Source of the DNA: an uncultured delta proteobacterium
GTDB lineage: Bacteria > Myxococcota_A > Polyangia > Polyangiales > B10-G4
Assembly: GCA_963727445.1 (NCBI GenBank)
Contig: CAVSGI010000009.1
Location: forward strand, 64,001 to 128,000
DNA: 64,000 bases
Reading direction: 5' to 3'
The notes beneath the pieces are model-generated. The model saw only the letters and a list, made by a program, of their open reading frames with translations, was not told where the DNA came from and did no database searches. Every line of letters begins with the position of its first letter. Within the stretch, counting starts at the first letter, position 1. Shown here piece after piece: positions 10,627 through 34,205 of the stretch. Both the position numbers and the translations under genes were made by a program.

Positions 10627-11359
10627 ACACCACGCCGAGGAACAGAAGCAATACGGCGCCGTTTCGCCTTTCGCCGAATCGCCCGACGGCCGAGCACGAG
10701 GGGCTGGCCGAAAGCGCCGAGGCCTCATAGAGCGCGAACACTCCTTCCTCGTCATCCGGTTCCAGGGTTCGCTGCCGAGTGTCACCTCGTGAGGTCTTCG
10801 CCCACATGGTTGCCGATCGCACGTCGCTCTCGTCGAGGCCGAGGACGTGCCCGACCTCGTGCGTGAGCACGGAGGCGAGGTCGTAGCGCCGGTCGCCGGC
10901 GGCGTCGGCTTCGTCCAGCAGGGCGAGCTCGCGCTCTCCGTTGATCGCGATGTCGGCATCGAGCAGACGTCCAGAGCCGGTCTCGTGAGTGCTCACGGTC
11001 ACCGCGAGCGCGTCGCCGAAGGGCCAGTCGCAAAGGACGTATACCCCGTTTCCGTTCACCTCGCGCGGGTCGTAGCCCACGGCTTCGGGAGGGCGGCCGG
11101 GGACGACGACGACGTCGGGCACGCCTTCGAACCCTCGCCACGCGTCGGTCGCGATCTGCAGTGCCTGGCGCACCTCGGCAGGGGTCGGACCGCAAGGGCT
11201 GGTGGTGTCGACGTGGAGCTGGACATCGCTTTGAAACCAACGAACGTTGGCGCCAGACTCGGTGCGTTTGAGCACGAAGCCGCGAGCGACCCCGGGGAAC
11301 GACGCGAAGCTCAGGGCCGCGACGAACACGGCGAGGGCCCATCGATGCTCAGGACGCAC
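10535..11359 (-). CDS. Matrixin/metzincin-family secreted metalloprotease with MYXO-CTERM-like tail
   Basis: Signal peptide, DADIAING, HEVGHVLGLDES, Met-turn ATMW, C-terminal SCS..hydrophobic..RR; start inferred at GTG 11359. Confidence 0.75.
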   Translation of the reverse strand: MRPEHRWALAVFVAALSFASFPGVARGFVLKRTESGANVRWFQSDVQLHVDTTSPCGPTPAEVRQALQIATDAWRGFEGVPDVVVVPGRPPEAVGYDPREVNGNGVYVLCDWPFGDALAVTVSTHETGSGRLLDADIAINGERELALLDEADAAGDRRYDLASVLTHEVGHVLGLDESDVRSATMWAKTSRGDTRQRTLEPDDEEGVFALYEASALSASPSCSAVGRFGERRNGAVLLLFLGVVFTLALRRARGESSSSERGSRRACSRSWPRT

Positions 11360-12339
11360 AGACACAGCGGTCGCGTCCCGTTTGCTTTGCTTCGTAGAGG
11401 GCGCCGTCGGCCACGCCGATGATCTCGGTGACCGACGAGAATCGCTGCCCGGCGTGATGAGTGGCGACTCCGATGCTGACCGTGATTTCGATGGTCCCTC
11501 CGCGCCAGGGGACGCGCGTCTCCGCGCAGGCCCGTCGCAACCGCTCTGCGAGGATGAAAGCGTTGCGGGGGTCGAGGTCGCGGGCCACGACGACGAACTC
11601 CTCGCCGCCGTAGCGACCGACCACGTCCTCGGCACGGAGGATCTTTCGGAGCGTTGCCGACACCACCCGCAACGCGAGAATCGCCTGCCTGGTGCCCGTA
11701 GGTGTCGTTGACGTGCTTGAAGTGGTCGACGTCGAGCATGAGGACCGACAGCGTTCGATCGTGGCGCTGCGCGAAGCTGAGCTCCTCCCTGAGCCGCTGG
11801 TCGAGGTAGCCGCGGTTGAACGCGCGCGTCAGCGGGTCGCGGATGGCTGCGGTGTAGAGCTGGGCGGCGGCGCTCTGCTCCTCCTCGTCGTCGAGAGAGA
11901 CCCGGATCGACGCTTCGCGCCCGACGAAGATCCGTTCTCCGCCCTCGAGCATCCGGGGAGCGAGCAGGCGCTCGTCCCCCACCAGAGTCCCGTTCTGGCT
12001 GGCGAGGTCCTCGACGTGCCAGCGACCCGCCTTGATGAAGAAGCGAACGTGCGACCGCGACACGCCGGTGTCGTGCACGACCGCGTCTGTCGCGTCGCTG
12101 CGTCCGAGGATCCACGAATCGCCCCGAACTGGAACCAGCCGAAACGGCGACTGATCGTCGCGAATGACCAGCGTCAAGTGGTTGCGTACGGCGCGTCGAC
12201 TTCCGCTCTGCGCCGACAGCGCGATCTGAGCGGTCTCGTCATCGCGAAAGCGATGCCCTCGCGGGGGACGCGTCGTGGGTGCGCGGGAGGGCCTACCGGT
12301 CGGCCGGAGAGTATCGCTTGCCGCGTTGTCCGATATCAT
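11349..12339 (-). CDS. FHA-GGDEF diguanylate cyclase, apparent +1 frameshift at 11678-11682
   Basis: FHA (LGRS, VSRSH, DLASQNGT), RDPLT, DVDHFKHVNDTYGH; removing one base restores AGDLALRVV...RAED..RYGGEEF. Confidence 0.87.
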
Positions 12340-12352
12340 CGTCACCTCCACC

Positions 12353-15299: not shown

Positions 15300-15374
15300 A
15301 TCGATGGCGACGAGCCGGCTGCACTCACCCGTGTGATCGGCGCGCCCGTTTCATCTGAGGCCCAAGGAGACACG

Positions 15375-15755
15375 ATGCAGGACACCGCCATCAACGAAGC
15401 GCACGCGCCGGAACCGGCCGCGGAAAGAAGGCGCAACATCCGGGTGCCGCTCGAGACCAACGTCGGTGTCGTGAGCGAGTCGAACTTCTACGCGGGCTTC
15501 TCTCAGGACGTCTCGGAGGGCGGTCTCTTCGTGGCGACCTATCAGCTGTTGCCCGTGGGCACTGAGGTGTGCGTCAGCTTTGCGGTGGGGGACGTGGAGA
15601 TCGAGGCGCACGGCACGGTTCGTTGGCTCCGAGAGCCTTTGAGCGGTGACGTCAGCCCCGGCATGGGGATCGAGTTCGAAGGGCTCCCCCGCGAGCAGGA
15701 GGATGCCATTCGGGCGTTCGTCCGGCTCCGCGAGCCGCTCTTCTTCGACCTCTGA
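15375..15755 (+). CDS. TIGR02266-type myxobacterial PilZ-domain protein
   Basis: ERRRNIRVPL (RxxxR), SNFYAGFSQDVSEGGLFVAT (DxSxxG), PGMGIEF; AAGGAG RBS. Confidence 0.88.
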   Translation: MQDTAINEAHAPEPAAERRRNIRVPLETNVGVVSESNFYAGFSQDVSEGGLFVATYQLLPVGTEVCVSFAVGDVEIEAHGTVRWLREPLSGDVSPGMGIEFEGLPREQEDAIRAFVRLREPLFFDL

Positions 15756-15758: not shown

Positions 15759-18575
15759 TCACGAGACCGCGTGGTCCCCTTTGGCGAGGGGAAGGCGAAT
15801 CGTGAACGCCGCGCCCCCGAGGTCGCATCCACCGACGTCGAGCGTCCCCCCGTGCTGGCGCACGACGTCACGGGCGATCGCCAGGCCGAGGCCGGTCCCT
15901 TCCCCAGCGCCGCGCGTGGTGACGAAGGGCTCGAAGATCTTCGAGCGAAGCTCGGCGGACACGCCGGGGCCGGAGTCCATGACCTCCACCACGTACTCGT
16001 CGCCTTCGCTGCGGCCTTCGACGCGAATCGTTCCGCCCTCGTCTCCCACCGCGCGAGCGGCGTTGTCGACGAGGTTCAGAAACACGTGGTTCATGTCGCC
16101 GGGACGGCCGAAGACGACGACCGTCTCGTCGACCTCCGCAGTGATCTCCACGCTGGGAGGGACCTTCGCCGACACGAGGCGCACCGACGCGAGCAGCCCG
16201 TGTCCTGGTTGAAATTTCCCCTGCTTCTCCTTTTCGATCCGCGAAAGATCGAGCAGGTCCGTCGAGAGGCGAGCGATCCGGTCCGCGCTGTCTTGCATCA
16301 CGTCGAACATCTGCTCGCTTCCCTCGTCGAGGGACGCCGAGAGGCGAGAGCGCACCGAGGGAAGACCGGAGGTGAGCGGCAAGAGGGCGTTGCGCACGTT
16401 GTGTGCGACCGAGGCGGCGACGACGCCCAGGGCGGCGAGGCGCTCCTGGTGCGCGAGGTGTTGCATCACCTTGCGAATACGAAGGTGGACGTCCACGCGC
16501 GCGAGGAGCTCGCGTCCATGGAAGGGCTTGGTCAGATAGTCGTCCGCGCCGGCTTCGAAACCTTCGAGGACCTGGCGGGTGTCCGAGCGGGCGGTGACGA
16601 GGAGGATGGGGGTGGTTCGCGTACGCTCGAGCTGCCTGAGCGCTTTCGTCAGCTCGATGCCGTCGATGCCTGGCATCGCCACGTCGGATACGACCACGTC
16701 GGGGACCACGAGCTCGACCGCCTCGAGCGCCCGCCTTCCGTCTGCCACGGCATGAACGGCGAACCGCGGTGCGAGGACGTCGGCGATGAACGCCCGCAGG
16801 TCGGGATCGTCCTCCACGACCAGGGCGACGGGCGCGCCCGCACGCGGAGGCTCACGGGTGAGCTCCGCGGTCGCAGTCGGGGGAGGGAGGCTCGCGAGCT
16901 CCGCCGGTGATTGGCGTGCGTTGGGCGCCGGGGGGGTCGACGCCTGGGCCACGATGCGGGGCAGGACGAGCCTGAACACCGTCCGCACGTTCGGCTCGCT
17001 CACGACCGTCACCTCGCCACCATGCAGCCGCGCCGTCTCCCGAACCAGAGCGAGGCCGAGGCCCGTACCACCGGGCCGCCGGGCGCCCGCCCCTGGCTGC
17101 GAGAAGCGCTCGAAGAGATCCTTCTGCTGTTCGGTGGGAATGCCGACCCCATCGTCCTCCACCGAGAAGAGGATCTCGCCTCCCGTGTCCTCCGCCTGAA
17201 TGGAGATACGGCGGGCGGCGAAGCGCAGCGCGTTCGCCACCAGGTTGGTGAGCGCCGCCTCGATGCGATCCACGTCGAGGGCCATCGAGGTCTGACCCGT
17301 CGGGACGGAGGTGACGAGCGCGATGCCCCGCGAGGCCGCGGCGGGCTGGAAGGCGTCGGCGACACGACGGACGAGGTCCGCCGGGCGGATCGCGGTGCGC
17401 GTGAGGGTCGCCGCTCCGGCGTCGATCTTCGCGAGGTCGAGGAGCTGGTTGATCAGCGTGAGCAGGCGGGTGCCGTTCCGCTTCATCGCCGCCAGGGTCG
17501 CATCGCGACCGCCGGGGGGGGCCGTGCCTGCGGCCAGGTCGTCGAGGGGCGCCAACATCAGGGTCAGTGGGGTGCGCAGCTCGTGCGACACGTTGGAGAA
17601 GAAGTCGGTCTTCGCCTGATCGAGGTTGCGCACCTCTTCGAGGGTCTCGGCAAGCTGTCGGCTCGTCTCGGCCAGCTCAGCGGTGCGCTCCTCGACCTTG
17701 GCGTCGACCTCTCGTTTCGCTTCCAGCAGCTCCTCGAAGCGGAGCTCGTTGTCCCGAACGCTCCGCCCCAGCGCGTCGTGGTGGTCCTGAATGTCCGCGA
17801 TGCGGTCCGCGAGGTCGCGTCGCTGTCGATAGGCGAGCACCGTGGCCCAGGTGGCGACACCGCCGAGCACGGTGGTCGCGATCAAGGGGTAGAGGGCCGC
17901 TCCGAGCAGAGAGCCGAGGACGAATCCGCCGCCGCTTCCGGCGAGCAGCACCAGCCACGGAGAGACGCGTCCATCGGCTTCCTGCCACTCGATCTCGAAG
18001 ATGCACTCGTCCGCGCCCCGGTGGTAGCACTCGTCGTGCACCACCCGCGCAGGTGGCAGGTCGAAGAGCACCGGGACCGAGGCCATCTGGGCGCGCAGGA
18101 CCTCGCAGAGATGGCTGGTGCCCGTGCGCGGGACGTCGATCTGACGATGCCCCGTGAGCCGGATCCGCCGCGGCCCGAGCTTGTCCAGCTCCCAGCTCAC
18201 CACTTTGTTGAAACGGGGAGTCGCGCCCACGATGCGCTCGTAGGTGAACAGCGGCGTCCCGAAGCTTCGGACGAAGGGGTAGATGGCCCCCATGTGCTTC
18301 GGGGTCATGACGCCGCGCCCCACCCGGGTGACGAGCTCGCGCCCGCCTTCGGTTGCCAGCCGGTCCAGCACCTTTTCGCAAAAACCCCAGGAGACCCAGG
18401 ACTGCGTTTCGATCAGGTGCCGGACGTCCACCCCCCACTCGTCCACCCAACGCTGGACGGTCTGCTTTCCCAGCTCTTCCTCCGCGAGATCGAGGATGCT
18501 CCCGAGCCCATACGCATGCATGTGCGGCATCAGCACGTCGTCTTCGCGTTCGCGCTGCTTCGCGGGTGCGGTCAT
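15759..18575 (-). CDS. Hybrid sensor kinase: H-NOX/V4R-like domain, 2 TM, HisKA-HATPase-REC-HisKA-HATPase
   Basis: LCE..AQMASVP.....HDECYHRGADECIFEIEW (V4R-type Cys pattern); SHELRTPL; REC SDVAMPG; second AHNVRN and GEGTGLGL; TGATG-coupled to the desaturase. Confidence 0.88.
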   Translation of the reverse strand: MTAPAKQREREDDVLMPHMHAYGLGSILDLAEEELGKQTVQRWVDEWGVDVRHLIETQSWVSWGFCEKVLDRLATEGGRELVTRVGRGVMTPKHMGAIYPFVRSFGTPLFTYERIVGATPRFNKVVSWELDKLGPRRIRLTGHRQIDVPRTGTSHLCEVLRAQMASVPVLFDLPPARVVHDECYHRGADECIFEIEWQEADGRVSPWLVLLAGSGGGFVLGSLLGAALYPLIATTVLGGVATWATVLAYRQRRDLADRIADIQDHHDALGRSVRDNELRFEELLEAKREVDAKVEERTAELAETSRQLAETLEEVRNLDQAKTDFFSNVSHELRTPLTLMLAPLDDLAAGTAPPGGRDATLAAMKRNGTRLLTLINQLLDLAKIDAGAATLTRTAIRPADLVRRVADAFQPAAASRGIALVTSVPTGQTSMALDVDRIEAALTNLVANALRFAARRISIQAEDTGGEILFSVEDDGVGIPTEQQKDLFERFSQPGAGARRPGGTGLGLALVRETARLHGGEVTVVSEPNVRTVFRLVLPRIVAQASTPPAPNARQSPAELASLPPPTATAELTREPPRAGAPVALVVEDDPDLRAFIADVLAPRFAVHAVADGRRALEAVELVVPDVVVSDVAMPGIDGIELTKALRQLERTRTTPILLVTARSDTRQVLEGFEAGADDYLTKPFHGRELLARVDVHLRIRKVMQHLAHQERLAALGVVAASVAHNVRNALLPLTSGLPSVRSRLSASLDEGSEQMFDVMQDSADRIARLSTDLLDLSRIEKEKQGKFQPGHGLLASVRLVSAKVPPSVEITAEVDETVVVFGRPGDMNHVFLNLVDNAARAVGDEGGTIRVEGRSEGDEYVVEVMDSGPGVSAELRSKIFEPFVTTRGAGEGTGLGLAIARDVVRQHGGTLDVGGCDLGGAAFTIRLPLAKGDHAVS

Positions 18576-19570
18576 CAGTCGGCGGAAGTGCTCGGCTCGG
18601 TCGCGGCAGCCGCAGGGAGGCTGATCAACGGTACGCCCGTGGCGCTCGCGACCTCTCGAAACTGGCGGCGGCGTCGCACGATGTTCCAGCCCACGCCCTC
18701 GGCTTCGTTGTACCGGTCTCCGAGCACCTCCCGAACGAGCTCGCGGCACGCGCGCAATCGATACCAGGGCAGGGTGGGGAAGAGGTGATGCTCGGTGTGG
18801 AAGTTGAAGTTGAGCATCAGCAGCTCACTCACCCCGCGCGGGTAATAGCCCGAACGGCTCACTCGCCACTGCTCCCAGAGCCGCAGTGGGCGATCGAATC
18901 CCGGCAGCATGGTGTGGTGCGGAAGGTTCACCAACTCGTTCATCATGAGATAGAGGACGAGGGCAGGGAGGATGTCGAAGGACAGGCCAAAATGGAGCAC
19001 CGTCCACCCAATCCCCCCGTAGGCCACGAGCAGAAATAACACGGACGACACGCATTCGCGGAGCTTGTTGGATTCCCCCTTCCGCGCCAGCGACAGGGGG
19101 TAGGTCCAGAAGACGAGATGCTGGGCGAACGCCACCAGGGGCACCCACGACCGCCACCCGAAGCGCACCGCCCATGGGATCTCTCCGGTCTCGCGCCACC
19201 CCACGAAAGCGGCCGCCGTCGGATCCTTCTCGAGAAAGCCCACGTAGAAGTGGTGCTGGCGGTGCATGTGCTTCCACGAGGCGTAGGGCTGAAAGCAGAA
19301 GAGACTGGCCCAGTGGCCGATGGCGTCGTTCACCTTCCTCTTGCGCACGAAAGCTCCGTGACCGCATTCGTGCAAGATCGCGAAAGCCTGGAAGAAGCCC
19401 ACACAGAGAAGCAGCTGTGAGGCGAGGTAGCTCGGCCAGTCGGCCCGCTGCATGAGAGCGACTCCGGCGGCCAGCACCGCCGCGTTTCCGAGCAGCGTCG
19501 CCGCCGCCATGACGGCGCCGGGTTCGAAGACCAGATGCCCCCGGATCGTGGCGTACTGCGCCTTGGTCAT
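18575..19570 (-). CDS. Membrane fatty acid desaturase family protein
   Basis: His boxes HECGH, HMHRQHH, HTEHH plus TM segments; ATGA overlap with halogenase stop. Confidence 0.9.
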   Translation of the reverse strand: MTKAQYATIRGHLVFEPGAVMAAATLLGNAAVLAAGVALMQRADWPSYLASQLLLCVGFFQAFAILHECGHGAFVRKRKVNDAIGHWASLFCFQPYASWKHMHRQHHFYVGFLEKDPTAAAFVGWRETGEIPWAVRFGWRSWVPLVAFAQHLVFWTYPLSLARKGESNKLRECVSSVLFLLVAYGGIGWTVLHFGLSFDILPALVLYLMMNELVNLPHHTMLPGFDRPLRLWEQWRVSRSGYYPRGVSELLMLNFNFHTEHHLFPTLPWYRLRACRELVREVLGDRYNEAEGVGWNIVRRRRQFREVASATGVPLISLPAAAATEPSTSAD

Positions 19571-21333
19571 CCGTCCGCGATCCCCGTCTCGATGAACCCA
19601 GCGAGGCAGAGTCGATTGAGGAGTACGAGCTGGCGCTCGCTCAAGTTCGACCGAAGGGAGCCGAATGACTCGGAACGCCCCCGGAGTCGGCGGAACAGCT
19701 CCACCCCTCCCTCGATCTCGTCGCGAAACTTGATGGCCGGCACCGCTGGATCCTCCAGGCAGAAGCGGTGACAGGGGCGAGGGCTGGCGTAGAGCGGCGG
19801 CATGACGTCTGCGTGGGCGACGGGGTCCTTCCAATACCGCTCCATCGTCCGTCGGGCCTCGTCACTGAAGGCCTCTGATGCACTTTTCACACGGACCACT
19901 TCGATGGTCTTGCCCTCGCGCAGGGAGACGTCCTCTCGAAACCGCAAATGTTCGGAGTCGCCGAGATCCTCGCCCCGAAAGCGGCGACGCGTCTCGAAGA
20001 GCGGGCCTTCGACGGCCTGGGCGTCGCCCTTCCCGAGATCGACACCCAGCACGTGGATGAGATCCGGGCTGATGTCCGTATCCACCAACGCGTGGAAGGT
20101 CCGATCGCGCGCGTCCCTCGACGTCGCGTCGGCTCTGCGCTTCCAATAAACGCTCGACGGATGGCGCTCGGCGATGGCGTGGTACCACTGGTCGATCGCC
20201 AAGGCGAAGGAGCGCGCAACGGCGTGCCAGTCGGTGTCGAAGTCGCGCCACAGCTCCCGTTTTTCCGCGTCGCTGACCGAGTCGTCGAAGGTGGTTCGGA
20301 TCAAGAGCGCGGCCGTGGCCGCGTAGACGAGCGCGAAGGCGACACCCGAAGAGAAGAGGGGATCGACGAAATGCGCGGAGTCGCCGATGAGCAGCCAGCG
20401 TCGGTCGAAATCGCAGAATTGGTCACTGATCATCGAGTAGTTCGTAGCCGTGAGGAGCCGGTCGCGGGTCGGCTTTGCATCCTCGAGGAGGTCCCCCAGA
20501 AGCGGGACCTCTCGCGCGAGCTGCAGGAAGCGCCCTGGATCGTCCTGGGGCACGGCCAGGTCGGCGAGTGCGGCGGGGTCCGTGACGAGACCCAGCGAGT
20601 GTGTGAGCACGCGCTCGCCATCGACGATCTTCGGTACGGGGATGTACCAGAACCACCCGTGCTCGAAAGCGAAGCAGCCGATCGCCGACCGATCGTCTGC
20701 GCGGAAGATGTTCCAGTCCCCCTCGAGGCTCTGCGCCGACTTCCCTCCCACCACGTGCATCCAGAGCGCGACGTTCTTGTAGGCGGAGAGGAACTCCTTG
20801 GGCTTTCGCGTCACCACACTGGTCTGGCGGCCCGACGCTTCCACGAAGAGACGTGCGCCGAACCTCCGCCCGTCCGCGGTGATGACCGCGTGACCCTCCT
20901 CTGCGTCTTCGACACGCGCGACAGCGGTGCCCTGAAACACGTCGACCCCACAATCGGCCGCGTGATCGAGGAGGAGCGCATCGAACTCCGCGCGATCGCA
21001 GTGGATCGCCCACCGGAGCACTCCGTCTCTGAGGTAATGCTCGTGCTCGAAGAAGGTCGCGGCGGGGGCCTGGGGATCCCAGGCGTAGTAGCCACCGAAC
21101 TTCTTGACCCAGCAGTCGCTCGACAGGACGCGTTCGAGGGCGCCGCTCTCGGAAAGCACCGGAATCACTCGGTGCGAGAACGATTCCCCGATGTGCTCTC
21201 TCGGGAAGTGCTCCTTTTCGAGGATGGCGATACGAAGGTCGGTCTGGCGCGCGAGAAGCGCGCCGAGGGTCGCCCCTGCGGGGCCACCGCCCATGATGAC
21301 CACGTCATAATCGTGCTGGGCCGAGCTGCTCAC
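19567..21333 (-). CDS. Flavin-dependent halogenase (tryptophan halogenase superfamily)
   Basis: GGGPAG, FPREHIGES, candidate catalytic Lys in WVKKFGG, WFWYIP (WxWxIP), IGDSAHFVDPLFSSGV. Confidence 0.88.
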   Translation of the reverse strand: MSSSAQHDYDVVIMGGGPAGATLGALLARQTDLRIAILEKEHFPREHIGESFSHRVIPVLSESGALERVLSSDCWVKKFGGYYAWDPQAPAATFFEHEHYLRDGVLRWAIHCDRAEFDALLLDHAADCGVDVFQGTAVARVEDAEEGHAVITADGRRFGARLFVEASGRQTSVVTRKPKEFLSAYKNVALWMHVVGGKSAQSLEGDWNIFRADDRSAIGCFAFEHGWFWYIPVPKIVDGERVLTHSLGLVTDPAALADLAVPQDDPGRFLQLAREVPLLGDLLEDAKPTRDRLLTATNYSMISDQFCDFDRRWLLIGDSAHFVDPLFSSGVAFALVYAATAALLIRTTFDDSVSDAEKRELWRDFDTDWHAVARSFALAIDQWYHAIAERHPSSVYWKRRADATSRDARDRTFHALVDTDISPDLIHVLGVDLGKGDAQAVEGPLFETRRRFRGEDLGDSEHLRFREDVSLREGKTIEVVRVKSASEAFSDEARRTMERYWKDPVAHADVMPPLYASPRPCHRFCLEDPAVPAIKFRDEIEGGVELFRRLRGRSESFGSLRSNLSERQLVLLNRLCLAGFIETGIADG

Positions 21334-21391
21334 GTCGCGCCTCCTGCCTCCCCCCGCGAAGATGTAGGTCGGTGACGCCGAGCCTGCAACC

Positions 21392-23659
21392 TCAGGCGCC
21401 TTCCGCGAGCTTGCTCGCCAGGCGCTGGGCGCGGATCTCGCCGTAGCGCTCGCGGAGGAAGTAGTACCAGCGATGCAGGCCCGCGCGGTTGTAGCAGTTG
21501 ACCATCACGTCGGCCTCGTGCACGAAGCCGGCCTCGACGAACGGCCGGGAGTCGAAACCGGTCGGGAGCATCACGAATCGGTCTCCCGCGCCAACGGCCT
21601 CGGCCTGCGCGGCGACGTGTCGCGCCGCGGCGCGCAGCGCATCCTCGGGGCGGATCTCCGAATGGATCGGCAGCACCCAGGTCGTGTTGACGAGCCACGT
21701 GAGGTTGAACCCCGGGTCGGCCCGATCCTCGATGAGCGCGACGAGCGGGTGGCCGCGATCGGTGATGATGTGATTGCGCCGCCTCCGCGAGACACCGCCG
21801 CGAGCGAAGGACTTCCGAGACTCGTCGAGGCGTACGTCGTCGACGCGGAAGGAGAGCGCGGCCGCCCCGAGGCGCGTGAAGATGCGCTCCGCGGCTCGCT
21901 GCACCACTCTCTCATCGCGCCGGCGGAGCGCGCGCACGACAAGGTCCGAGGGGCGAGTGAGCGTCGGTGGTGGGCCGTCGCCGCGGAGAACCCAAAGGCC
22001 CACGCTGCGGGATGCGATGGCCTCGGGCGTGCCGGTGAGCGCAAAGAAGCCCTCGAGAAACGCGATGATCGGACGATTCGCCGTGTTGACGAAGACCACC
22101 ATGTAGCGGCCGTCGGGCCGCGGCAGGATGTAGTCGAGGTAGGCCATGTGGAGTAGACCGGGCTCGCGATGCTTCCGCGCCGGCGCCGCGGCCATGTGCT
22201 GGATGACCCACGAGTGCTCCCAGGCGCGCACTGCGGAAACGGCGGCCACCGGGCGCCCCTCCTCTCGCTGGACGAGCGTTCGGCAGAGATCGGTGGCGTG
22301 GAGCTTGCGCCAGACCACGCGGGCGCGGTCCTCCACCGGGGGCAGGTTCCGCGTCATGTGCGGGCCGAAGAGGCCGACCTCTCGATAGAGGCGAAGAAGG
22401 CCGTCGAAGTCGTGGCCCATCCCGACGTCCAGGTGCGGATACCGAAGACGGGCGATCAGGTCGACGAACGCCGGAGAGTCGACGCCGCGTTGATCGCACC
22501 ATTGCGCGCGGCAGCTCTCGCCATCCACGCCGGTGATCTGCATTTCGCCGACCGGGATCAGGCCCGTCTGCGCGCGGAGCTTGGCGTCCTCGAGGGTCAG
22601 CCCGCGCCACAGGACGTCTTCTTTCGGGTTGGCCTCGAAGCTAAGGCCACCGAAGGAGAGGTCGTGCACTGCGCGGGAAAGGCGTTCCCCCGTGGCGAGG
22701 TTCCGGCCGGAGATGCGCACCGCCACGCCGTCGGGGACGCGCGTGCGAAAGTGGTAGCGACGCTGCCGTCGGGACACCATCAGCGGGAACGAGAGGGAGA
22801 CGACCGATCCACTCCATCGCAGGACCCGAACCGTCATGGCATAGCTGACGGAGAAGAGCTCGAAGGCGAGGCGCCCTCGAGACGCGACCAAGGGCGATTC
22901 GAGGGCTTCGAGTGTGATCGTCGAGCCTTCGGCGGCGACGAGTCGGCCCCGGATGGTGGCGCCTCCCGGGAGCTCGAAGGTCGCTATCGTCTCCGACAGA
23001 GCCGCGACCTCCAGGATCCGCCGAACGCGCCTCGCGTCGCTCAGCTGATCCGACCGGCGGGGGAGCCCTTCTTCCTGTGGCGACAGGCGAAGACGCATCC
23101 GAAAGCGCCGTGCCCCATCCGGCGACCTCCAGGGAATCGACTCCAGTACCCGAGCCCGGGCGCGGCGGAGTAGACGCCGGTCTCCCCACAGCTCGACGAT
23201 CGGTATCACCGACGCTGGGGAGAGCGCGTGGGAGGACTCGACCGCGCACCCATCTCGGGAGACGTCGATGAGTGGCATGGCATAGAGATCGAGGTCGTCG
23301 CCGCCGTCCGGGACGATGAGAACGCTGGGATCGCGGGGCATTCGACGGGCCATCGAGCGCTCCAACCGGATTGGCGTGAGACGAGCTCCCGCGATTGGCA
23401 GCACGATTCGTCCCGGCTCGACTCGGGCCGGGCCTCCGAAGAGAACGCGCTCCGGCTCCGAGTGAATCACCAGCCGGACGCGGTCCAGCCGCCCCGGCAG
23501 AGCATCGGTGGCCACCGGGCTCAACACCAGCTCGCGACTTGCTCCTCGCCCTCGCACGCCCGAGAGAAACGTTTCGAGTCGAGCGCTCATCGCTCCCACA
23601 TCGAGCACGGCCGGAGCCAATTCCCGGGCGGCGCGCTCGATGTACGACCGACGGCTCAT
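21392..23659 (-). CDS. Multi-PilZ protein with C-terminal putative GNAT-like (acyltransferase) region
   Basis: PilZ motifs IDVSRDG and QRRYHFR...HDLSFGGL; C-terminal LYREVG...PVAAVSAVRAWEHSWVIQHMAA read as GNAT-like by pattern only. Confidence 0.7.
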   Translation of the reverse strand: MSRRSYIERAARELAPAVLDVGAMSARLETFLSGVRGRGASRELVLSPVATDALPGRLDRVRLVIHSEPERVLFGGPARVEPGRIVLPIAGARLTPIRLERSMARRMPRDPSVLIVPDGGDDLDLYAMPLIDVSRDGCAVESSHALSPASVIPIVELWGDRRLLRRARARVLESIPWRSPDGARRFRMRLRLSPQEEGLPRRSDQLSDARRVRRILEVAALSETIATFELPGGATIRGRLVAAEGSTITLEALESPLVASRGRLAFELFSVSYAMTVRVLRWSGSVVSLSFPLMVSRRQRRYHFRTRVPDGVAVRISGRNLATGERLSRAVHDLSFGGLSFEANPKEDVLWRGLTLEDAKLRAQTGLIPVGEMQITGVDGESCRAQWCDQRGVDSPAFVDLIARLRYPHLDVGMGHDFDGLLRLYREVGLFGPHMTRNLPPVEDRARVVWRKLHATDLCRTLVQREEGRPVAAVSAVRAWEHSWVIQHMAAAPARKHREPGLLHMAYLDYILPRPDGRYMVVFVNTANRPIIAFLEGFFALTGTPEAIASRSVGLWVLRGDGPPPTLTRPSDLVVRALRRRDERVVQRAAERIFTRLGAAALSFRVDDVRLDESRKSFARGGVSRRRRNHIITDRGHPLVALIEDRADPGFNLTWLVNTTWVLPIHSEIRPEDALRAAARHVAAQAEAVGAGDRFVMLPTGFDSRPFVEAGFVHEADVMVNCYNRAGLHRWYYFLRERYGEIRAQRLASKLAEGA

Positions 23660-23752
23660 TTAGCAAAGAGGCTAGCGCCCACCTCCTATCGCGCAAACCC
23701 CCCCCACCCACGTGGTACTCTGCAGCAGCGATTCGGCCGCGTGACGACTTTC

Positions 23753-24910
23753 ATGAACATCGACTTTCGCGCCTACCCGATCCTCTACGTAGACGACGAA
23801 GCGGCGAACCTCATCACGGTGCGCTACCTGCTGGAAGGCAGCTTCGAGCTCCTGACCGCGCAGACCGGAGAGGACGCCCTCGCGCAACTCGCCGCGCGCG
23901 ACGACATCGCCGTGCTTCTCTGCGACCAGCGCATGCCCGGAATGTCCGGCGTCGAGGTCTGTGAACGCGCACGCGCGATCCGACCGGACGCCGTGCGGAT
24001 CATGATCACTGCGTACACCGACCTTCACGCCGCGGTGGACGCCATCAACCGCGGTCAGGTCGCGCGATACGTTCAGAAGCCTTTCCGGAACGAAGAGCTC
24101 GTCGCGGTTCTCCAGACGGCGATCTCTCTCGTGCACGTGCAGCGCACGGTGCAGTCGTTGGAGGTCGGGCTCCTCTCCTCTGGACAGGTGATGGGGGCGC
24201 GCACCGTCGAGGCGCAGATCGGCCACGAGCTCGGGAACGTCCTGGTCGGGGTGGAGGCGAACGTGGCGTACGCTTCCGACCTGATCAAGACGGCGCTGGA
24301 GATCGTCGGCGAAGACGGGGGCCGGTTGCGAGATCTGCTGGAAGAAGCGGCGGCGGGGCACGTCGACGCTCACATCAGCGTCGAGCAGATGAAGAACATC
24401 CTGCGCCGGCTGAAGCAGGGGGAGCTGTCGAAGCGCCCACCTCGCTGCCACGTCGATCGCGTGGTGGACTCGACGGTTCGCATTCTTCGCAACGAAGTCG
24501 AGAAGGTCGCCCGCATACAACTCATCATCGCGGGAACACCCCGGGTCGAGATGGAGGCCTCGGTGCTCGCGCAAGTCGTGACCAACCTCCTGCTGAACGC
24601 GGCGCAGGCCGTGCAGGAGCACGGGGTGAAGGACGATGCGATCGTCGTCGAGGTCGTCGCCGAGGACGACAAGGCGATCCTACGTGTCCGCGATCGCGGG
24701 CCCGGTATCGCGGACGAGCACCTCGAACGCATCTTCGATCCGCACTTCACGACGAAGAGCGGCGGTAATGGGCTCGGGTTGGCAATCGTTCGCGAGATGG
24801 TCACCAGCGCGGGGGGGCGGGTAAGGGTTCAATCGACACCGGAAGGGTCGACCTTCACCGTCGAGCTCCCCCTGTTGCCGCCAGCATCATCGCATCCGCC
24901 CTCGCACTGA
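23753..24910 (+). CDS. REC-HisKA-HATPase hybrid kinase, divergent from the halogenase cluster
   Basis: ILYVDDE, LCDQRMPGMSG, GHELGN, NLLLNAAQA, HFTTKSGGNGLGL. Confidence 0.9.
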   Translation: MNIDFRAYPILYVDDEAANLITVRYLLEGSFELLTAQTGEDALAQLAARDDIAVLLCDQRMPGMSGVEVCERARAIRPDAVRIMITAYTDLHAAVDAINRGQVARYVQKPFRNEELVAVLQTAISLVHVQRTVQSLEVGLLSSGQVMGARTVEAQIGHELGNVLVGVEANVAYASDLIKTALEIVGEDGGRLRDLLEEAAAGHVDAHISVEQMKNILRRLKQGELSKRPPRCHVDRVVDSTVRILRNEVEKVARIQLIIAGTPRVEMEASVLAQVVTNLLLNAAQAVQEHGVKDDAIVVEVVAEDDKAILRVRDRGPGIADEHLERIFDPHFTTKSGGNGLGLAIVREMVTSAGGRVRVQSTPEGSTFTVELPLLPPASSHPPSH

Positions 24911-25015: not shown

Positions 25016-25648
25016 GTGCAGGGTCTACGACTCGATGGGCTCGGCGAATCGGAAGCACGAGCCATCCTTGCCGCTCTTGCGGCGGCGCAGGACATCATCG
25101 TCCTCACCGCCTCCGACGGGTCGATCGTCTTCGTCAATCGGGATCTGCCGTCGCTGTCCCGCGAGCGATTGGTCGGTACCAGGCTCCACGACCACGTCGA
25201 AGCAGCGGATCGTGCTCGGCTGCAGGAGGCGATCCACACCGCACTCGAAAGTGGTGAGCACGTTGGCACCAGCGTCTCCCTCGTCTCACCGGCTGGCCCG
25301 ACGCCCGTGTCCATCCGCATCCTGCCCATTCGAGAGCCCGGCATCGGTCCGCGCCTCGTGCTCTTCGTGCAGGCCGCGTCCGCCCATCGCCGAGCCGGCG
25401 AGGGCAAGGACACGAGCGTCACGATGCAGGACATCGGCCGCAAGGCCGTCCACGATTTCAACAACGTCCTGACGGCCGTTCGTTACCACGCAGCGTTCGC
25501 TATCGAAGACCTCCCGGCGGAATCACCGGTGCTCCGGGAGCTCAGAGACATCGACGAGGCAGCCCAGCGCGGAATGGAGATCGCGGCGCGAGTCCTCGAC
25601 GAGATCAGCTCTGCTTCGGACGCGTCGGCATCGCGAAACGGAACATGA
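25016..25648 (+). CDS. PAS-HisKA protein lacking an HATPase domain
   Basis: PAS (DGSIVFVNR), VHDFNNVL H-box; stop overlaps hypD ATG; start uncertain. Confidence 0.7.
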
Positions 25649-26757
25649 GGTATCTCGACGAGTATCGTGACTCGGCGGCGACGCGCGCCGTGGTGGAGGA
25701 GATTCGCCGCGTCGCCACGCGACGCTGGGTGGTCATGGAGGTCTGTGGCGGGCAGACCCACAGCATCATCAGGCACGGAATCGACGGCCTCCTCCCCGAC
25801 GAGGTCGAGCTCTTGCACGGGCCTGGATGTCCGGTGTGCGTCACCCCGCTCGGGGCCATCGACCGGGCCCACGCCATCGCCCGTCACGAGGACGTCGTCT
25901 TCTGCACCTTCGGTGACATGCTGCGCGTGCCCGGCTCGCAAGGAGATCTGCTCGCGCTCCGCGCGGAGGGGGCCGACGTCCGGATCGTCTACTCCCCGCT
26001 CGACGCGGTCGCGCTGGCGCGCGAGCTTCCGGATCGGCGCGTGGTCTTCTTCGCCGTCGGCTTCGAGACGACGGCCCCAGCGAACGCAATGGCTTTGGCA
26101 GTTGCGCGCCGCGAGGGGCTGACCAACTTCAGCGTCCTGGTGTCGCACGCGCTGGTCCCGCCGGCGATCGCCTCGATACTGCAGGCGCCCGACAACCGCG
26201 TTCAAGGCTTCTTGGGTCCAGGCCACGTGTGCACCGTGATGGGCACCGGCGAGTACGAAAGCCTCGCACGACGCTTCGAGGTCCCCATCGCCATCACCGG
26301 CTTCGAGCCGCTCGACCTCCTGCACGGCTTGCTCACCGTCGTTCGGAGACTCGAGCGCGGCGAAGTCGCGGTCGACAACGCCTATGCGCGGGCCGCTCGG
26401 ATCGGCGGCAACGAACGGTCGAAGCAGCTCATGGAGGAGGTGTTCGAGGTCTGCGACCGAAAGTGGCGCGGCATCGGGAGCCTGCCCAAGAGCGGCTATC
26501 GACTCTCCTGGGAGTACCGCGCACACGACGCCGAGCGGCTCTTCGACGTCGCCGACGTCGACGCGGAGGAGCCCGCCGTTTGCATCAGTGGACAGGTCCT
26601 GCGCGGTTTGAAGAAGCCGGATCAGTGTCCGGCGTTTGGACGCGAGTGCACCCCCGAATCCCCACTCGGCGCGACCATGGTTTCGAACGAAGGCGCGTGC
26701 GCCGCCTACTATCAATACGGGCGCATCGTGCAGCTGGAACGGAGGCCGGTGCCATGA
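25645..26757 (+). CDS. hypD: Hydrogenase maturation protein HypD
   Basis: [40 protein letters not shown]. Confidence 0.97.
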
Positions 26758-27350
26758 GCATCCAGAGTCTCAGCGGTGCGGCGGTGCGAAAGGCCGACGA
26801 GAGCGCCCGCACCATCCGAACCTTCGTCGAGGCCGAGGGCCGAGGTCTCGCCGAGTGCGCGACCGCCATCGCTGGTCGACTCCGTGAAGGGGCCGGCATC
26901 TTCACGATGGGCAATGGGGGAAGCGCCTGCGACGCCCAGCACCTCGCGGTCGAGTTCACGCACCCCATCCTGGAAAAGCGTCGCGCGTTTCGCGCCCAGG
27001 CCTTGTGTACCGACACGACGCTGCTCACCGCGGTCGGTAACGACGAGGACTTCTCCCTGGTCTACGCGGCGCAGCTCCGACTTTCTGCACGGCGAGGAGA
27101 CATCGTCTTCGCGAGCTCGACCAGTGGGTCGTCCGCGAGCATCAATCGCGGCCTGAAAGTGGCCGAGGAGATGGGACTCTTCCGCGTGGGCCTCAGCGGC
27201 AAGGACGGTGGTCGCATGGTCGACTCGTGCGATCACTGCTTCACGGTCCCCAGCTACAGCATTCACCGCATTCAGGAGTGTCACGTCGTCTTGCTGCACC
27301 TCCTGTGGGACCTGGTGCACGTCGCGCTCGGAGAGGAGGACGTGCTGTGA
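26754..27350 (+). CDS. SIS-domain (GmhA/phosphoheptose isomerase-like) protein of hydrogenase clusters
   Basis: [30 protein letters not shown]. Confidence 0.88.
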
Positions 27351-28396
27351 GTGGCGGTTCCGGATGGGTCTGCCCGACGCCTGTCGGTCGATACGAGAGC
27401 GTCGTGATGGGACACGGGAGCGGCGGACGCCTCAGCGCACGGCTCCTGTCCGAGGTCATCCTGCCCGCACTCTGTCCGAACGTGGGCGCGCTGGAGGATC
27501 AGGCGACCGTCTCCGTAGCGGAACTCTCGCGCATCGCGATCACCACGGACTCGTTCGTGGTCGATCCCATCTTCTTTCCCGGTGGTGACCTCGGATCGCT
27601 GGCTGTGAACGGAACGGTGAACGACCTCGCGGTCGGCGGCGCTCGCCCGCACGTCCTTTCCGCGGCGTTCATCCTCGAGGAGGGGCTCCCGCTCACCGAG
27701 CTCGAGCGCGTCGCCGAATCGATGAGGGAGGCGTGCGCGGCGGCTTCGGTGCGCGTCGTGACCGGAGACACCAAGGTCGTGCAGAAGGGGAAGGGTGACC
27801 GTCTCTTCATCACCACCACGGGGATCGGAATCGTCCCGGACGGGCGCCAGCTCTCCGTCGAGGACGCACGGCCTGGTGATCGGGTGATCGTCTCGGGGAC
27901 CCTGGGAGACCATGGCATCGCGATCATGTCGGTGCGTGAGGGGCTGAGCTTCGAGACGGCGCTCGAGAGTGACTGCCGGCCGCTCTGGGACCTGTGTCAT
28001 CTGATGCTCGAGACCTGTCCCGAGATTCGCTTCATGCGGGATCCGACGCGGGGAGGCCTCTCCAGCGTGCTGAACGAGCTCGCCGCGGGGTCGAAGGTCG
28101 GAGTCCGCCTCGACGAATCGGCCCTGCCGCTGCGTGACGGCGTTCGCGGCGCATGCGAGTTGCTCGGCCTCGATCCGCTCTACGTCGCCAACGAAGGCAA
28201 GGTGGTGGCCGTCGTTCCCGCCGCGGATGCCGAGGAGTTGGTGGCCGTGATGAGAATGCATCCGGATGGTCGGGATGCGACATGCATCGGCGAGATCGTC
28301 GATGCACACCCAGGAATGGTGACCATGACGACCACCATCGGTGGGGAGCGCGTCGTCGCCATGCTCTCGGGTGAACAGCTGCCGAGGATCTGCTGA
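27347..28396 (+). CDS. hypE: Hydrogenase maturation protein HypE
   Basis: HGSGG, TTDSFVVDP, VNGTVNDLA, RDPTRGG, C-terminal QLPRIC. Confidence 0.97.
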   Translation: MSGGSGWVCPTPVGRYESVVMGHGSGGRLSARLLSEVILPALCPNVGALEDQATVSVAELSRIAITTDSFVVDPIFFPGGDLGSLAVNGTVNDLAVGGARPHVLSAAFILEEGLPLTELERVAESMREACAAASVRVVTGDTKVVQKGKGDRLFITTTGIGIVPDGRQLSVEDARPGDRVIVSGTLGDHGIAIMSVREGLSFETALESDCRPLWDLCHLMLETCPEIRFMRDPTRGGLSSVLNELAAGSKVGVRLDESALPLRDGVRGACELLGLDPLYVANEGKVVAVVPAADAEELVAVMRMHPDGRDATCIGEIVDAHPGMVTMTTTIGGERVVAMLSGEQLPRIC

Positions 28397-29452
28397 ATGT
28401 CCGACGACAACTCTCTGCGTTCAGAACCCGACGTCACCGAGATCGACGTGATCTGGGTGACGGCTGGCCTGAGTTGCGATGGCGACACCATCGCGGTCAC
28501 TTCGGCCACCCAGCCCGCGATCGAAGACGTCATCGCAGGCTCGATCCCCGGCCTCCCGCGGGTGCGGCTTCACAATCCGGTCCTCGCATACGAGACCGGG
28601 GACGACTTTCTCCGTGTGATGCACGACGCCGCCGCCGGACGGCTCTCACCGTATGTGCTCGTCGTCGAGGGGTCGATCCCCAACGAGGCGGTGAGCGGCG
28701 ACGGCTATTGGGCTGCGGTCGGCAACGACCCCGAGACCGGTGAGGCGATCCGGACGACCGAGTGGATCGACCGGCTCGCCCCGAATGCCCTCGCCGTCGT
28801 CGCCATCGGCACCTGCGCAACCTACGGGGGGATTCCCGCCATGAGCGGCAACCCCACGGGCGCGATGGGCCTGCCGGATTATCTGGGTTGGGACTGGAAG
28901 AGCAGCGCTGGCATCCCGATCGTCTGCGTTCCCGGCTGTCCCGTGCAGCCGGACAACTTCATGGAGACGCTGACCTACCTGCTCTTTCAGGCCGCGGGAC
29001 GAGCGCCCATGATTCCGCTCGACGAAGCGCTGAGGCCGACCTGGCTCTTTTCACTCACGGCCCACGAGAGCTGTGACCGTGGCGGCTTCTACGAGTCGGC
29101 CGACTTCGCCACGGCCTACGGCCGATCCCAGTGCATCGTCAAGCTGGGCTGTTACGGCCCGGTGGTGAACTGCAACGTGCCGCGGCGCGGATGGATCAAC
29201 GGCGTGGGCGGTTGCCCCAACGTGGGCGGCATCTGCATCGGCTGCACGATGCCCGGCTTCCCCGACAAGTTCATGCCCTTCATGGAGGAGCCACCGGGCG
29301 CGAAGATGTCGTCGACCGCGGTCGTGATGTACGGCCGCACGGTGCGCGCGCTCCGAAAGTTCACGCAACAGCAGTTGAACAAAGAACCGAAGTGGCGCTC
29401 GCCTGGCGACACGCTCACGACCGGCTACGAGCCACCGAAAGAACAGTCATGA
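28397..29452 (+). CDS. hhyS: Group 1h [NiFe]-hydrogenase small subunit
   Basis: WVTAGLSCDGDT, ATQP, GTCATYGG, PGCPVQPD, GGCPNVGGICIGCTMPGFPD; no Tat signal. Confidence 0.92.
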   Translation: MSDDNSLRSEPDVTEIDVIWVTAGLSCDGDTIAVTSATQPAIEDVIAGSIPGLPRVRLHNPVLAYETGDDFLRVMHDAAAGRLSPYVLVVEGSIPNEAVSGDGYWAAVGNDPETGEAIRTTEWIDRLAPNALAVVAIGTCATYGGIPAMSGNPTGAMGLPDYLGWDWKSSAGIPIVCVPGCPVQPDNFMETLTYLLFQAAGRAPMIPLDEALRPTWLFSLTAHESCDRGGFYESADFATAYGRSQCIVKLGCYGPVVNCNVPRRGWINGVGGCPNVGGICIGCTMPGFPDKFMPFMEEPPGAKMSSTAVVMYGRTVRALRKFTQQQLNKEPKWRSPGDTLTTGYEPPKEQS

Positions 29453-31218: not shown

Positions 31219-32102
31219 ACACTCCGGGCGAGGACTTCGACCGCGCGATGCAACGCATCGAGTCGTCCCTCGAGCGCCTCGATGCGCTTCCAGAGTCTCT
31301 CGAGCAGCAGATCGCTCGAGAGCTGGTCTCTGCGCTGCTCGACGTACATCGAATCGGGCTCGCGCGGATGAAGGCGCTGGCCGAGAAAGCTGGAGAGCCG
31401 GGCCGGCGCATCGCGACCGCGTGGGCGGATGACCCGCGGGTTGCCGCGCTCTGGTCGATGCACGAGGCCGAGGAGGCGCCGGCGCCGGGAGAGGAGCTGG
31501 TTCAGCTTCGAGTTCCTCACGACGCATCGCCGCCGGCGGAGGTCCACCCGGAACATCGCTGCGACATCTGTGGTCAGGCGCTCCCCGATGAGCACGCCCA
31601 CATGCTCGACAGAGAGGCACGGTCGTTGTCGTGTGTGTGCCGGACGTGCGGACCCCTCTTCCTCGCCGACGGCGCGAAACGACGGTCGGTATCGCCCCTG
31701 GCGGTCGAGCTATCCGACTTCCGAATCGACGACACCCGCTGGCGCGCGTTCGACCTGCCCATCGACCTCGCGTTCTTCAACCGAGCTCCTTCAGGCGAAA
31801 TCGTCGCGCACTACCCGAGCCCGGTCGGCACCGTCGATGCCGTCGCACGCGCCGAGGCCTGGGGCGCGCTGGAGCGCGACAACCCCGTCTTGTCCGACGC
31901 CGACCTCGACGTCAACGCCCTGCTGGTCCACCGGCTCGGAGCGAACCGCGAGCACTTCCTCGTATCCATCGACAAGTGCTACGAGCTGGCCGGCCTCTTG
32001 CGGTCGCGATGGCAGGGGCTCACCGGCGGCGACTCTGCGCAGCGAGCCCTCGACGACTTCTTCGGTGGCCTCCGGACCAGTGCGAGCGCGGCCAGGCGAT
32101 GA
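31215..32102 (+). CDS. Group 1h accessory protein: NifU N-terminal-like helix region fused to DUF5947-like domain
   Basis: ARELVSALLDVH..GLAR...DDP.VA.L then CDICG...EHAH...CVCRTC, PIDLAFF, YPSP.G, IDKCYEL.G. Confidence 0.72.
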   Translation: MNTPGEDFDRAMQRIESSLERLDALPESLEQQIARELVSALLDVHRIGLARMKALAEKAGEPGRRIATAWADDPRVAALWSMHEAEEAPAPGEELVQLRVPHDASPPAEVHPEHRCDICGQALPDEHAHMLDREARSLSCVCRTCGPLFLADGAKRRSVSPLAVELSDFRIDDTRWRAFDLPIDLAFFNRAPSGEIVAHYPSPVGTVDAVARAEAWGALERDNPVLSDADLDVNALLVHRLGANREHFLVSIDKCYELAGLLRSRWQGLTGGDSAQRALDDFFGGLRTSASAARR

Positions 32103-33883: not shown

Positions 33884-34205
33884 GCTCGGACTGACGATGC
33901 AGGTGGTGTCCGTGGTCAGCCAGCGGGCTGGCGAGGCGCGCGTCAGTCGTGTCGTGCTGGAAGTGGGAAAGCTCGCCGCAGTGCTGCCGGATGCCATGGC
34001 GTTCTGCTTCGAGCTCTGCGCGGCCGGGACGCCCCTCGAAGGCGCGAGCCTCGAGATCGTCGAGGTGCCCGGCGTCGCGCGATGCCGCGCGTGTGACGGG
34101 CGCGTCGAGCTGGAGCGTCCGGTCGGGCAATGCAGGTGCGGTTCGCGCGAGCTCGAGTGGATCTCGGGGGACGAGCTCAGGATCCGCGAGATGGAGGTGG
34201 TCTGA
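33876..34205 (+). CDS. hypA: Nickel metallochaperone HypA
   Basis: MHELG, CRAC, C.CGS, SGDEL. Confidence 0.95.
   Translation: MHELGLTMQVVSVVSQRAGEARVSRVVLEVGKLAAVLPDAMAFCFELCAAGTPLEGASLEIVEVPGVARCRACDGRVELERPVGQCRCGSRELEWISGDELRIREMEVV

Follow-up and report, generated by a model that had tools for sequence, protein, structure and literature searches.

A PilZ/tandem-GNAT enzyme with a linked kinase pair and an exchangeable tailoring slot suggests a family of make-and-sense chemical signalling cassettes

The locus and its conserved module

The locus described here belongs to an uncultured delta proteobacterium (GTDB lineage Myxococcota_A; Polyangia; Polyangiales; B10-G4) and lies in a stretch of 64,000 nucleotides (nt) of contig CAVSGI010000009.1 (assembly GCA_963727445.1, positions 64,001 to 128,000), referred to below as the window. 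Its genes encode a protein that joins PilZ units, a fold known for binding cyclic di-GMP (c-di-GMP), to a tandem GNAT acyltransferase fold, followed by a flavin halogenase-type protein, a desaturase and a hybrid sensor kinase, and, divergently, a kinase that begins with a receiver domain (REC-kinase). Across related loci the PilZ/tandem-GNAT enzyme, the sensor kinase and the REC-kinase form a conserved module with an exchangeable slot for tailoring enzymes. The module is real and apparently undescribed so far, no account of it having been found in the literature searched, with subscription journals outside coverage.

The five-gene layout given in the original prediction, with its strands and spacings, is borne out by the coordinates (Table 1): 58 nt separate the PilZ gene from the flavoprotein gene, an ATGA overlap couples the flavoprotein and desaturase genes, a TGATG overlap couples the desaturase and kinase genes, and the divergent pair is 93 nt apart. 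Pfam calls for the five products are PilZ; Trp_halogenase/FAD_binding_3; FA_desaturase; HisKA, two HATPase domains and REC; and REC with HATPase. Likewise, the earlier statement that the surroundings hold no polyketide or nonribosomal peptide synthase, carrier protein or transporter stands among the 53 open reading frames (ORFs) of the window that were scanned. GC content at third codon positions (GC3) is 0.82–0.86 for all five genes and 0.76–0.87 for their neighbours, and the intergenic region showed neither a sigma-70 consensus nor an Rfam match. In the host genome (9.47 Mb, 86% complete) the enzyme gene and the sensor domain are each present in single copy, alongside 27 GGDEF matches, some of them split.

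Table 1. Genes and domains of the locus (window positions; aa, amino acids; residue numbers refer to the encoding protein)
Feature	Position	Strand	Extent	Remarks
REC-kinase gene	23753-24910	+	385 aa	divergent from PilZ gene
Divergent intergenic region	23660..23752		93 nt	shared promoter region presumed
PilZ/tandem-GNAT gene	23659-21392	-	755 aa	
First PilZ-like barrel	23075..23359	-	about residues 101-195	R101xxxR105 and D132xSxxG137
Second PilZ domain	22433..22768	-	residues 298-409	R301xxxR305 and D333xSxxG338
Tandem GNAT	21449..22441	-	residues 407-737	from fold search and conservation
Flavin halogenase-type gene	21333-19567	-	588 aa	
Desaturase gene	19570-18575	-	331 aa	membrane di-iron His-box enzyme
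Hybrid sensor kinase gene	18575-15759	-	938 aa	
Sensor domain	17964..18521	-	residues 19-204	H-NOX/V4R fold; predicted model, pLDDT 89.9

Related loci were pooled from genome, metagenome and class-level searches (55 loci), and six near-duplicates (L027, L030, L031, L034, L082, L083) were dropped, leaving 49. A sensor-domain homologue lies within 9 kb of the enzyme gene in 40 of these, eight of the nine misses falling at contig ends, and a REC-kinase homologue within 10 kb in 37, often in two copies; the latter is absent at L003 and L011 despite full flanks. The linkage of the three genes persists down to enzyme identities of 23–26%. Since the window and 22 of the loci went into the sensor profile, they match it by construction; a window-only tblastn search together with 15 loci outside the profile (L068–L081, L084) gave the same linkage outcome. 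Of 18 related genome loci, ten carry the titles Myxococcota, Polyangia or Myxococcales and four Deltaproteobacteria, and the class-level search found the enzyme in 28 of 401 genomes, a lower bound owing to a stricter first pass.

Conserved co-occurrence thus holds for three of the predicted genes, but not for the halogenase (0/49) or the desaturase (6/49), and the five-gene cassette is rejected as a conserved unit on these counts. What varies is the slot between enzyme and kinase, which holds a small methyltransferase in 25 of the 49 loci, a desaturase in six, a JmjC protein in four, and a P450, an O-methyltransferase or a tryptophan-type halogenase in two each, with ThiF and pyridoxal phosphate (PLP) enzymes as further contents; in at least six loci (L008, L010, L070, L073, L074, L076) the core stands without detected cargo. 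The nearest relative of the window locus, L006, with 57% identity in the enzyme and 60% in the sensor, has a wholly different cargo, whose GC3 (0.72–0.78) is set apart from that of its core genes (0.84–0.88). Because its contents vary in this way, the slot behaves as an exchange site, and the halogenase and desaturase occupy it in this genome and are not defining parts of the module. Two slot genes, L001:13239-13997 (252 aa) and L004:15810-16268 (152 aa), have no Pfam or NCBIfam match, the latter recurring in L029 immediately before the kinase gene.

The enzyme and its tailoring partners

The original prediction described the 755-residue protein as a PilZ-PilZ-GNAT-like synthase, and most of that description survives. 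An AlphaFold model built on 40 homologues (mean pLDDT, the predicted local distance difference test, 86.8) resembles MrkH/YcgR over residues 201–409 (Z 14.8, root-mean-square deviation (rmsd) 9.3, 203 aligned). The second PilZ domain is recognized by Pfam (E 5e-7, residues 299–346), resembles the Alg44 PilZ domain (Z 11.1, rmsd 2.8, 101 aligned), and carries on its barrel the RxxxR and D/NxS/AxxG motifs of PilZ c-di-GMP receptors; R301 and R305 are 95–100% conserved in close, middle and far groups, and this motif pair is nearly invariant across 129 such homologues. The first barrel is suggested by its intact motifs, by predicted strand topology and by Pfam PilZ matches at the same place in distant homologues, but has no Pfam match in the window protein, where residues 1–200 are barely covered by fold searches. 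Most close homologues have a degenerate version of its motif, and a distant clade retains it. With both motif pairs intact, the predicted link to c-di-GMP is upheld at the level of motifs.

An acyltransferase fold is indeed found in the C-terminal 330 residues, although as a tandem GNAT and not a single one. Many tandem GNATs match it (Z 12–14.7 over 260–285 residues), foremost histidine acetyltransferase (9emp, Z 14.7, rmsd 5.4, 274 aligned; 9emd, Z 14.6–14.7, rmsd 4.0, 274 aligned), of which 9emp is an amino-acid acyltransferase with bound N-myristoyl-histidine, followed by VipF (Z 14.3), clavulanate Orf14 (Z 13.7) and N-myristoyltransferases (Z 12–13). Family motifs are WxxQH (484–488), GLxRxR (622–627) and ExxxPGxN (645–652), and the homologue family counts 1078 representatives at E 0.001 and 120 at 1e-30, among them two distant proteins labelled Myxococcaceae and three fused to a methyltransferase (L078, P0132, P0139). 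A FeeM- or LuxI-type synthase gained no support from profiles: Pfam FeeM (PF21926) does not match the protein at E 0.1 and is not found in the host genome. Neither FeeM nor LuxI structures are among the fold matches listed, an absence that speaks little against such a fold. Alignments A1 and A2 gave no significant match to the sequences of solved structures, ESM Atlas returned unnamed clusters only for both query domains, and plasmid searches found no match for the enzyme or the halogenase and a single Anabaena protein for the desaturase.

Two known protein types come closest. PixB of Myxococcus xanthus (MXAN_2604) combines two PilZ domains with a C-terminal GNAT; it binds c-di-GMP and has its place upstream of Frz, with no known substrate (PMC8316039). 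As far as its description allows comparison, the order of domains is the same and the motif arginines are similarly spaced (210 residues, R121/R331, against 200, R101/R301, in the window protein), but one acetyltransferase domain is described there against a tandem GNAT here, its PilZ domains lack the serine of the second motif that the window protein keeps, and the available part of the account mentions no linked kinase pair or tailoring enzymes. Nas343 and Nas354 are N-acyl tyrosine synthases with a PilZ domain, and NasP is activated by cyclic AMP (PMC4897644), so that fusion of an acyltransferase making N-acyl amino acids to a second-messenger-binding domain has precedent. As described, however, Nas343/354 are proteins of about 394 aa in which one FeeM-type GNAT precedes one PilZ domain, and lie outside any biosynthetic operon, whereas the window protein has two PilZ units and a tandem GNAT without FeeM match, and is linked to a kinase relay.

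The likeness to PixB brings in an alternative, in which the enzyme is an effector for c-di-GMP-responsive protein acylation, possibly of a kinase, the core converts a second messenger into a phosphorelay, and the slot enzymes are passengers or unrelated. Protein acyltransferases score as well as small-molecule ones in the fold search, and the loci lacking detected cargo fit this idea, but cargo is tied to the core through translational coupling or gene fusion and occurs repeatedly, in many independent forms, and one cargo type, the Rv1355c family, needs an N-acyl amino acid. We consider protein acylation improbable. That the enzyme is instead a small-molecule N-acyl synthase is quite likely, because the slot enzymes are small-molecule enzymes, Rv1355c among them.

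The Rv1355c link comes from distant versions of the module. A far-clade profile matches 31 of 301 phylum genomes, some over the PilZ part only, and 18 loci taken from the stronger matches carry an LvrA-type kinase in ten cases, another or a cut-off kinase in four and none in four; their cargo is a methyltransferase, a B12 radical S-adenosylmethionine enzyme or an Rv1355c-family ThiF-nitroreductase, the last scoring 555–751 bits against a curated cut-off of 476. Rv1355c (TrzS) and OxzB convert N-acyl amino acids to oxazolones, and their genes normally adjoin that of the supplying acyltransferase (PMC12856293; bioRxiv 10.1101/2020.06.11.147165). Rv1355c occurs in 17 of the 301 genomes, in nine of them in one locus with a PilZ/tandem-GNAT gene, directly downstream in two (L120, L161), and in two further genomes the link is probably split by a contig break. 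FeeM was found in one of ten linked genomes tested (of 11), as a weak match on another contig, and in all six unlinked ones, where it stands beside Rv1355c in two, once as a fusion to a cyclic nucleotide-binding (cNMP) domain. This complementary pattern, which rests on incomplete genomes and on distant homologues of the window protein, would be expected if the tandem GNAT fills the OxzA/TrzA role, and the scarcity of FeeM where PilZ/GNAT adjoins Rv1355c also argues against protein acylation. OxzA and TrzA are described as stand-alone acyltransferases, unlike the PilZ-fused enzyme, and Rv1355c has no match in the window or elsewhere in its genome; the predicted synthase function nevertheless gains support from the presence of cyclases of the Rv1355c/TrzS type in the slot of relatives.

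The FeeM-cNMP fusion, NasP-like and encoded at L166:4115-5053 directly upstream of the Rv1355c gene (L166:2955-4094), is the cyclic-nucleotide-gated counterpart of the PilZ/tandem-GNAT-Rv1355c arrangement. Clusters for N-acyl tyrosines with methyltransferase, ThiF and nitroreductase genes have been described from Stieleria (PMC12479983). Two congeneric genomes encode a fusion of HMG-CoA reductase and polyprenyl synthase (L123:521-3295, L124:120-2615) immediately downstream of the module in its Rv1355c version. A different synthase may fill the enzyme position at L168: proteins of 1040–1080 aa with PilZ units and a C-terminal methyltransferase (L168:9930-13169, L169:637-3768) match the family profile over their PilZ part only, and the L168 gene adjoins genes for an LvrA-type kinase and a GGDEF-EAL protein.

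Regarding the local cargo, flavin halogenases are marked by GxGxxG, an active-site lysine and WxWxIP. The flavoprotein has GxGxxG, K78 and WFWYIP, its best solved relatives are the halogenases 8zop, PltA and CmlS (E 1e-34 to 1e-27), and WxWxIP and KxGG are found in 120 and 117 of 120 aligned family members. The family is widespread, for example in Streptomyces at 44–55% identity, and its nearest named relatives are mostly actinobacterial. Its neighbour, with three hydropathy peaks, a strong Pfam match (FA_desaturase, E 3e-35) and His boxes HECGH, HMHRQHH and HTEHH, is a desaturase or a hydroxylase by sequence, the two not being told apart; its best NCBIfam match is an arginine hydroxylase model, far below cut-off. 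Its clade (37–45% identity) supplies the six desaturases of the related loci.

It is unlikely, though with a considerable residual chance, that the module is real while the halogenase is a recent passenger, a hydroxylase or an enzyme for another substrate, leaving the product unhalogenated. The gene is missing not only from the related loci but also, at E 1e-40, from 400 other genomes of the class, and its top NCBIfam matches, all below cut-off, include the monooxygenases QhpG and LodB. The PltA/CmlS class prefers carrier-bound substrates, and no carrier protein is encoded in the locus. Against this stand the coupling to the desaturase gene, an ameliorated GC3 of 0.82, the intact set of halogenase motifs, a flavin reductase encoded once in the genome, and the recruitment of unrelated tryptophan-type halogenases to the same slot in L003 and L006.

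The kinase pair and its relation to the cargo

The hybrid kinase is ordered sensor, hydrophobic stretch (a single hydropathy peak at 219–237), HisKA (H331), HATPase, REC (D631), HisKA (H725) and HATPase, and the second kinase REC (D58), HisKA (H158) and HATPase, of LvrB/PhcR type. In Leptospira, LvrA and LvrB form a phosphorelay of sensor-HK-REC-HK and REC-HK proteins, HK denoting histidine kinase (PMC5863495; PMC13269768), similar in size (832 and 382 aa in Leptospira, 938 and 385 aa here) and with all the phospho-acceptor residues matched in the window pair. LvrA is described with a PAS sensor, no membrane segment and no synthase, while the window kinase has an H-NOX-fold sensor and a hydrophobic anchor; its score with the NCBIfam LvrA model (315 bits, where the cut-off is 1200; residues 356–898), the missing PAS and the anchor set it apart from LvrA orthologues, and no LvrC-like anti-sigma gene was noticed at the locus. 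Operons of synthase, sensor kinase and receiver kinase are proven in the PhcBSR(Q) system of Ralstonia (PMC8578825; PMC13269768), whose lipid-derived signal comes in two types by strain group. The synthase there, PhcB, is however a methyltransferase whose product is a 3-hydroxy fatty acid methyl ester, and PhcQ/PhcA carry the output; none of the five genes at the locus encodes a methyltransferase by Pfam, and PilZ, GNAT, an H-NOX-fold sensor and a variable tailoring slot do not appear in the Phc system as described.

The sensor, predicted earlier as V4R-type, proved to have a fold of the ligand-binding type with the three-cysteine zinc-site pattern, but stands closer to H-NOX (4u99, Z 15.5, rmsd 3.0, 175 aligned; Foldseek TM score 0.66) than to PoxR/DmpR-type V4R domains (Z 7.6), and also resembles the VirS-N ligand domain (Z 13.1). 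Of 23 sensors, Pfam V4R matched five weakly, below cut-off, and Arabinose_bd 13. The putative zinc site Cys157/His180/Cys183/Cys191 matches the spacing of that in S. oneidensis H-NOX (139/161/164/172; PMC7108781); among 35 sensors, its three cysteines are conserved in 35, 34 and 34 respectively, and position 180 is mostly His or Glu. The haem histidine (His103 in S. oneidensis), absolutely conserved in the H-NOX set of that study, has no conserved counterpart in the helix F region of the 35 sensors; its position, placed by spacing from the first zinc cysteine, is Arg121 (Arg in 30/35), and with Lys124, also conserved, this basic pair could hold a carboxylate. A haem-based NO/O2 sensor is therefore rejected. 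The H-NOX proteins of that study are free-standing, whereas the window domain is fused to a membrane-anchored kinase, and probably faces the cytoplasm since it precedes the hydrophobic stretch and shows no obvious signal peptide. Weak homologues of the domain occur on GAF-GGDEF(-EAL) proteins (P0200–P0202), and at L129:125-3370 a sensor-like domain is found on a kinase with REC and an HD-GYP phosphodiesterase output, adjoining a PilZ/tandem-GNAT gene, an arrangement that is possibly a feedback loop onto c-di-GMP. Taken together, the locus resembles known systems in parts and, on the features tested, belongs to none of the FeeM, H-NOX, LvrA and Phc groups.

A comparison of sensors with cargo bears on what the kinase reads. 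When two loci share a cargo class, their sensors exceed the similarity expected from enzyme identity by 5 identity points (35 loci; p about 0.0005 by label permutation). For the adjacent kinase core the excess is 2 points (p 0.07) and vanishes after allowing for the sensor (23 loci, the other 12 lacking a scorable kinase core); L009, scored as having no cargo in these tests, has an oxidase dependent on flavin adenine dinucleotide (FAD) just upstream. This tracking is a hint that the kinase reads the product, and, provided the enzyme is a small-molecule N-acyl synthase, we regard such sensing as somewhat probable.

A redox role of the sensor zinc site is nonetheless a real alternative. It forms part of an explanation in which a tailored N-acyl amide (a lipid, surfactant or antibiotic) is made while the kinase pair responds to another cue, such as redox through the zinc cysteines or a further hydrophobic signal, and acts on the cassette or on the same behaviour. 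In V. cholerae, an H-NOX protein free of haem detects oxidation by means of cysteines at the equivalent site (PMC7108781), and the zinc-site cysteines are the most conserved residues of the sensors here. Sensor types are moreover swapped while the enzyme is retained, kinase-less enzyme loci exist, and no phenotype from oxazolones is reported for five species that produce them (bioRxiv 10.1101/2020.06.11.147165). However, the sensor is also similar in fold to the small-ligand domain of VirS and is matched by Arabinose_bd in over half of the cases, cargo is tracked more by sensor sequence than by the kinase core, and the kinases have no DNA-binding output. A cue other than the product seems unlikely, if to be taken seriously.

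A possible c-di-GMP-gated signalling circuit

The preferred reading is tentative, held at somewhat less than an even chance: c-di-GMP would gate an N-acyl-amide synthase, and the module's own kinase relay would read the tailored product. The PilZ/tandem-GNAT protein, given its motifs, would bind c-di-GMP and, as its fold and partner enzymes suggest, acylate an amino acid or a related amine. The slot enzymes, here a flavin halogenase and a di-iron desaturase or hydroxylase, would modify the resulting N-acyl amide or its precursors, and the hydrophobic product would bind the haem-less H-NOX/V4R domain, probably in the cytoplasm. As with LvrA and LvrB, the first kinase core would then phosphorylate its own receiver and the separate REC-kinase, from which the signal would reach a regulator encoded elsewhere. 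Together these steps would form an autoinducer circuit gated by c-di-GMP, with the cargo determining its chemical dialect. Of the synthase-tailoring-receptor cassette first proposed, the linkage of enzyme, sensor and REC-kinase stands, but the halogenase and desaturase are not defining and several loci lack a tailoring gene. The claim that such a circuit had not been recognised as described holds in that no account was found, although its parts have precedents in PixB, Nas343/354, PhcBSR and LvrAB.

Several observations weigh against this circuit. On the synthase side, the GNAT part has no Pfam or NCBIfam GNAT/FeeM match, and its fold scores, which include the protein acetyltransferase VipF and N-myristoyltransferases, are too close for naming a substrate from the model. 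The coenzyme A (CoA)-binding loop, which in GNATs follows the motif Q/R-x-x-G-x-G/A (PMC13060382), is degenerate, after the QH strand, with G501 88% conserved in the close group, and the family includes stand-alone GNAT-only proteins of 350–370 aa. Of the six unlinked genomes with FeeM, four come from a single family, and four have it apart from Rv1355c. On the sensing side, the fewest cargo changes on quick trees are 7 for the sensor, 8 for the enzyme and 9 for the kinase core, a small difference, and the tracking test ignores kinship and the physical adjacency of cargo and sensor genes. In L006 a similar sensor accompanies presumably different chemistry, and the L010 kinase has no sensor domain. 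At distant loci the sensors are H-NOX-like or else of unrelated kinds, namely membrane domains of seven or five transmembrane helices; four of these loci (L118, L119, L120, L132) lack a kinase nearby, and neither an exporter nor a feedback regulator was found in the window locus.

A broader version extends the circuit over the phylum, as a family of c-di-GMP-gated autoinducer systems in which tandem-GNAT synthases are combined with swapped tailoring enzymes (methylation, desaturation, hydroxylation, halogenation, oxazolone cyclisation) and a co-evolving haem-less H-NOX-fold receptor, the signal being a halogenated N-acyl amide here and the sensor an oxazolone receptor in the Rv1355c versions. 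Taken jointly, these claims are unlikely to hold in full.

The surroundings of the locus hold further regulatory genes. A stand-alone PilZ protein (TIGR02266, above cut-off; 15333-15755, + strand) is encoded convergently, 3 nt from the end of the sensor-kinase gene, and an FHA-GGDEF diguanylate cyclase gene (11349-12351, - strand) shows a frame change near 11680 that places GGDEF positions 1–57 and 58–161 in different frames, likely an assembly error since two further GGDEF genes of the genome are split likewise. An HDOD-GGDEF gene (5750-7351, + strand), and a tandem array at 2337-5730 (- strand) of a sigma-54 response regulator, a MinD/ParA-type ATPase and a sigma-70-family factor, are a possible local c-di-GMP source and possible downstream targets, respectively. 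On the other side lies a NiFe-hydrogenase cluster (25645-45579) with hypD, a hypE-like gene, small and large subunits, DUF5947, a protease, hypB and hypF, interspersed with several two-component genes, and at 55930-57704 (+ strand) a methyltransferase gene precedes an HgcAB-like fusion of a CdhD corrinoid domain, a membrane part and a ferredoxin, whose cap-helix, NVWCAAGG, lacks the final lysine of the HgcA motif.

If the circuit is correct, it would supply N-acyl amino acids and oxazolones with a synthase, product and receptor that belong together, and would tie c-di-GMP directly to signal production through an enzyme. For oxazolones no receptor or role is established in the accounts available (PMC12856293; bioRxiv 10.1101/2020.06.11.147165), the latter, the discovering paper, leaving their biological role open. 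It would also give a concrete substrate hypothesis for PixB-type proteins, and would add a synthase family unrecognised by Pfam and NCBIfam, along with an H-NOX fold employed without haem. Should the kinase respond to another cue, the slot still points the way to new small-molecule chemistry in uncultured myxobacteria-like organisms. The module with its interchangeable tailoring enzymes thus points to a family, not described before, of cassettes that may both make and sense a chemical signal.

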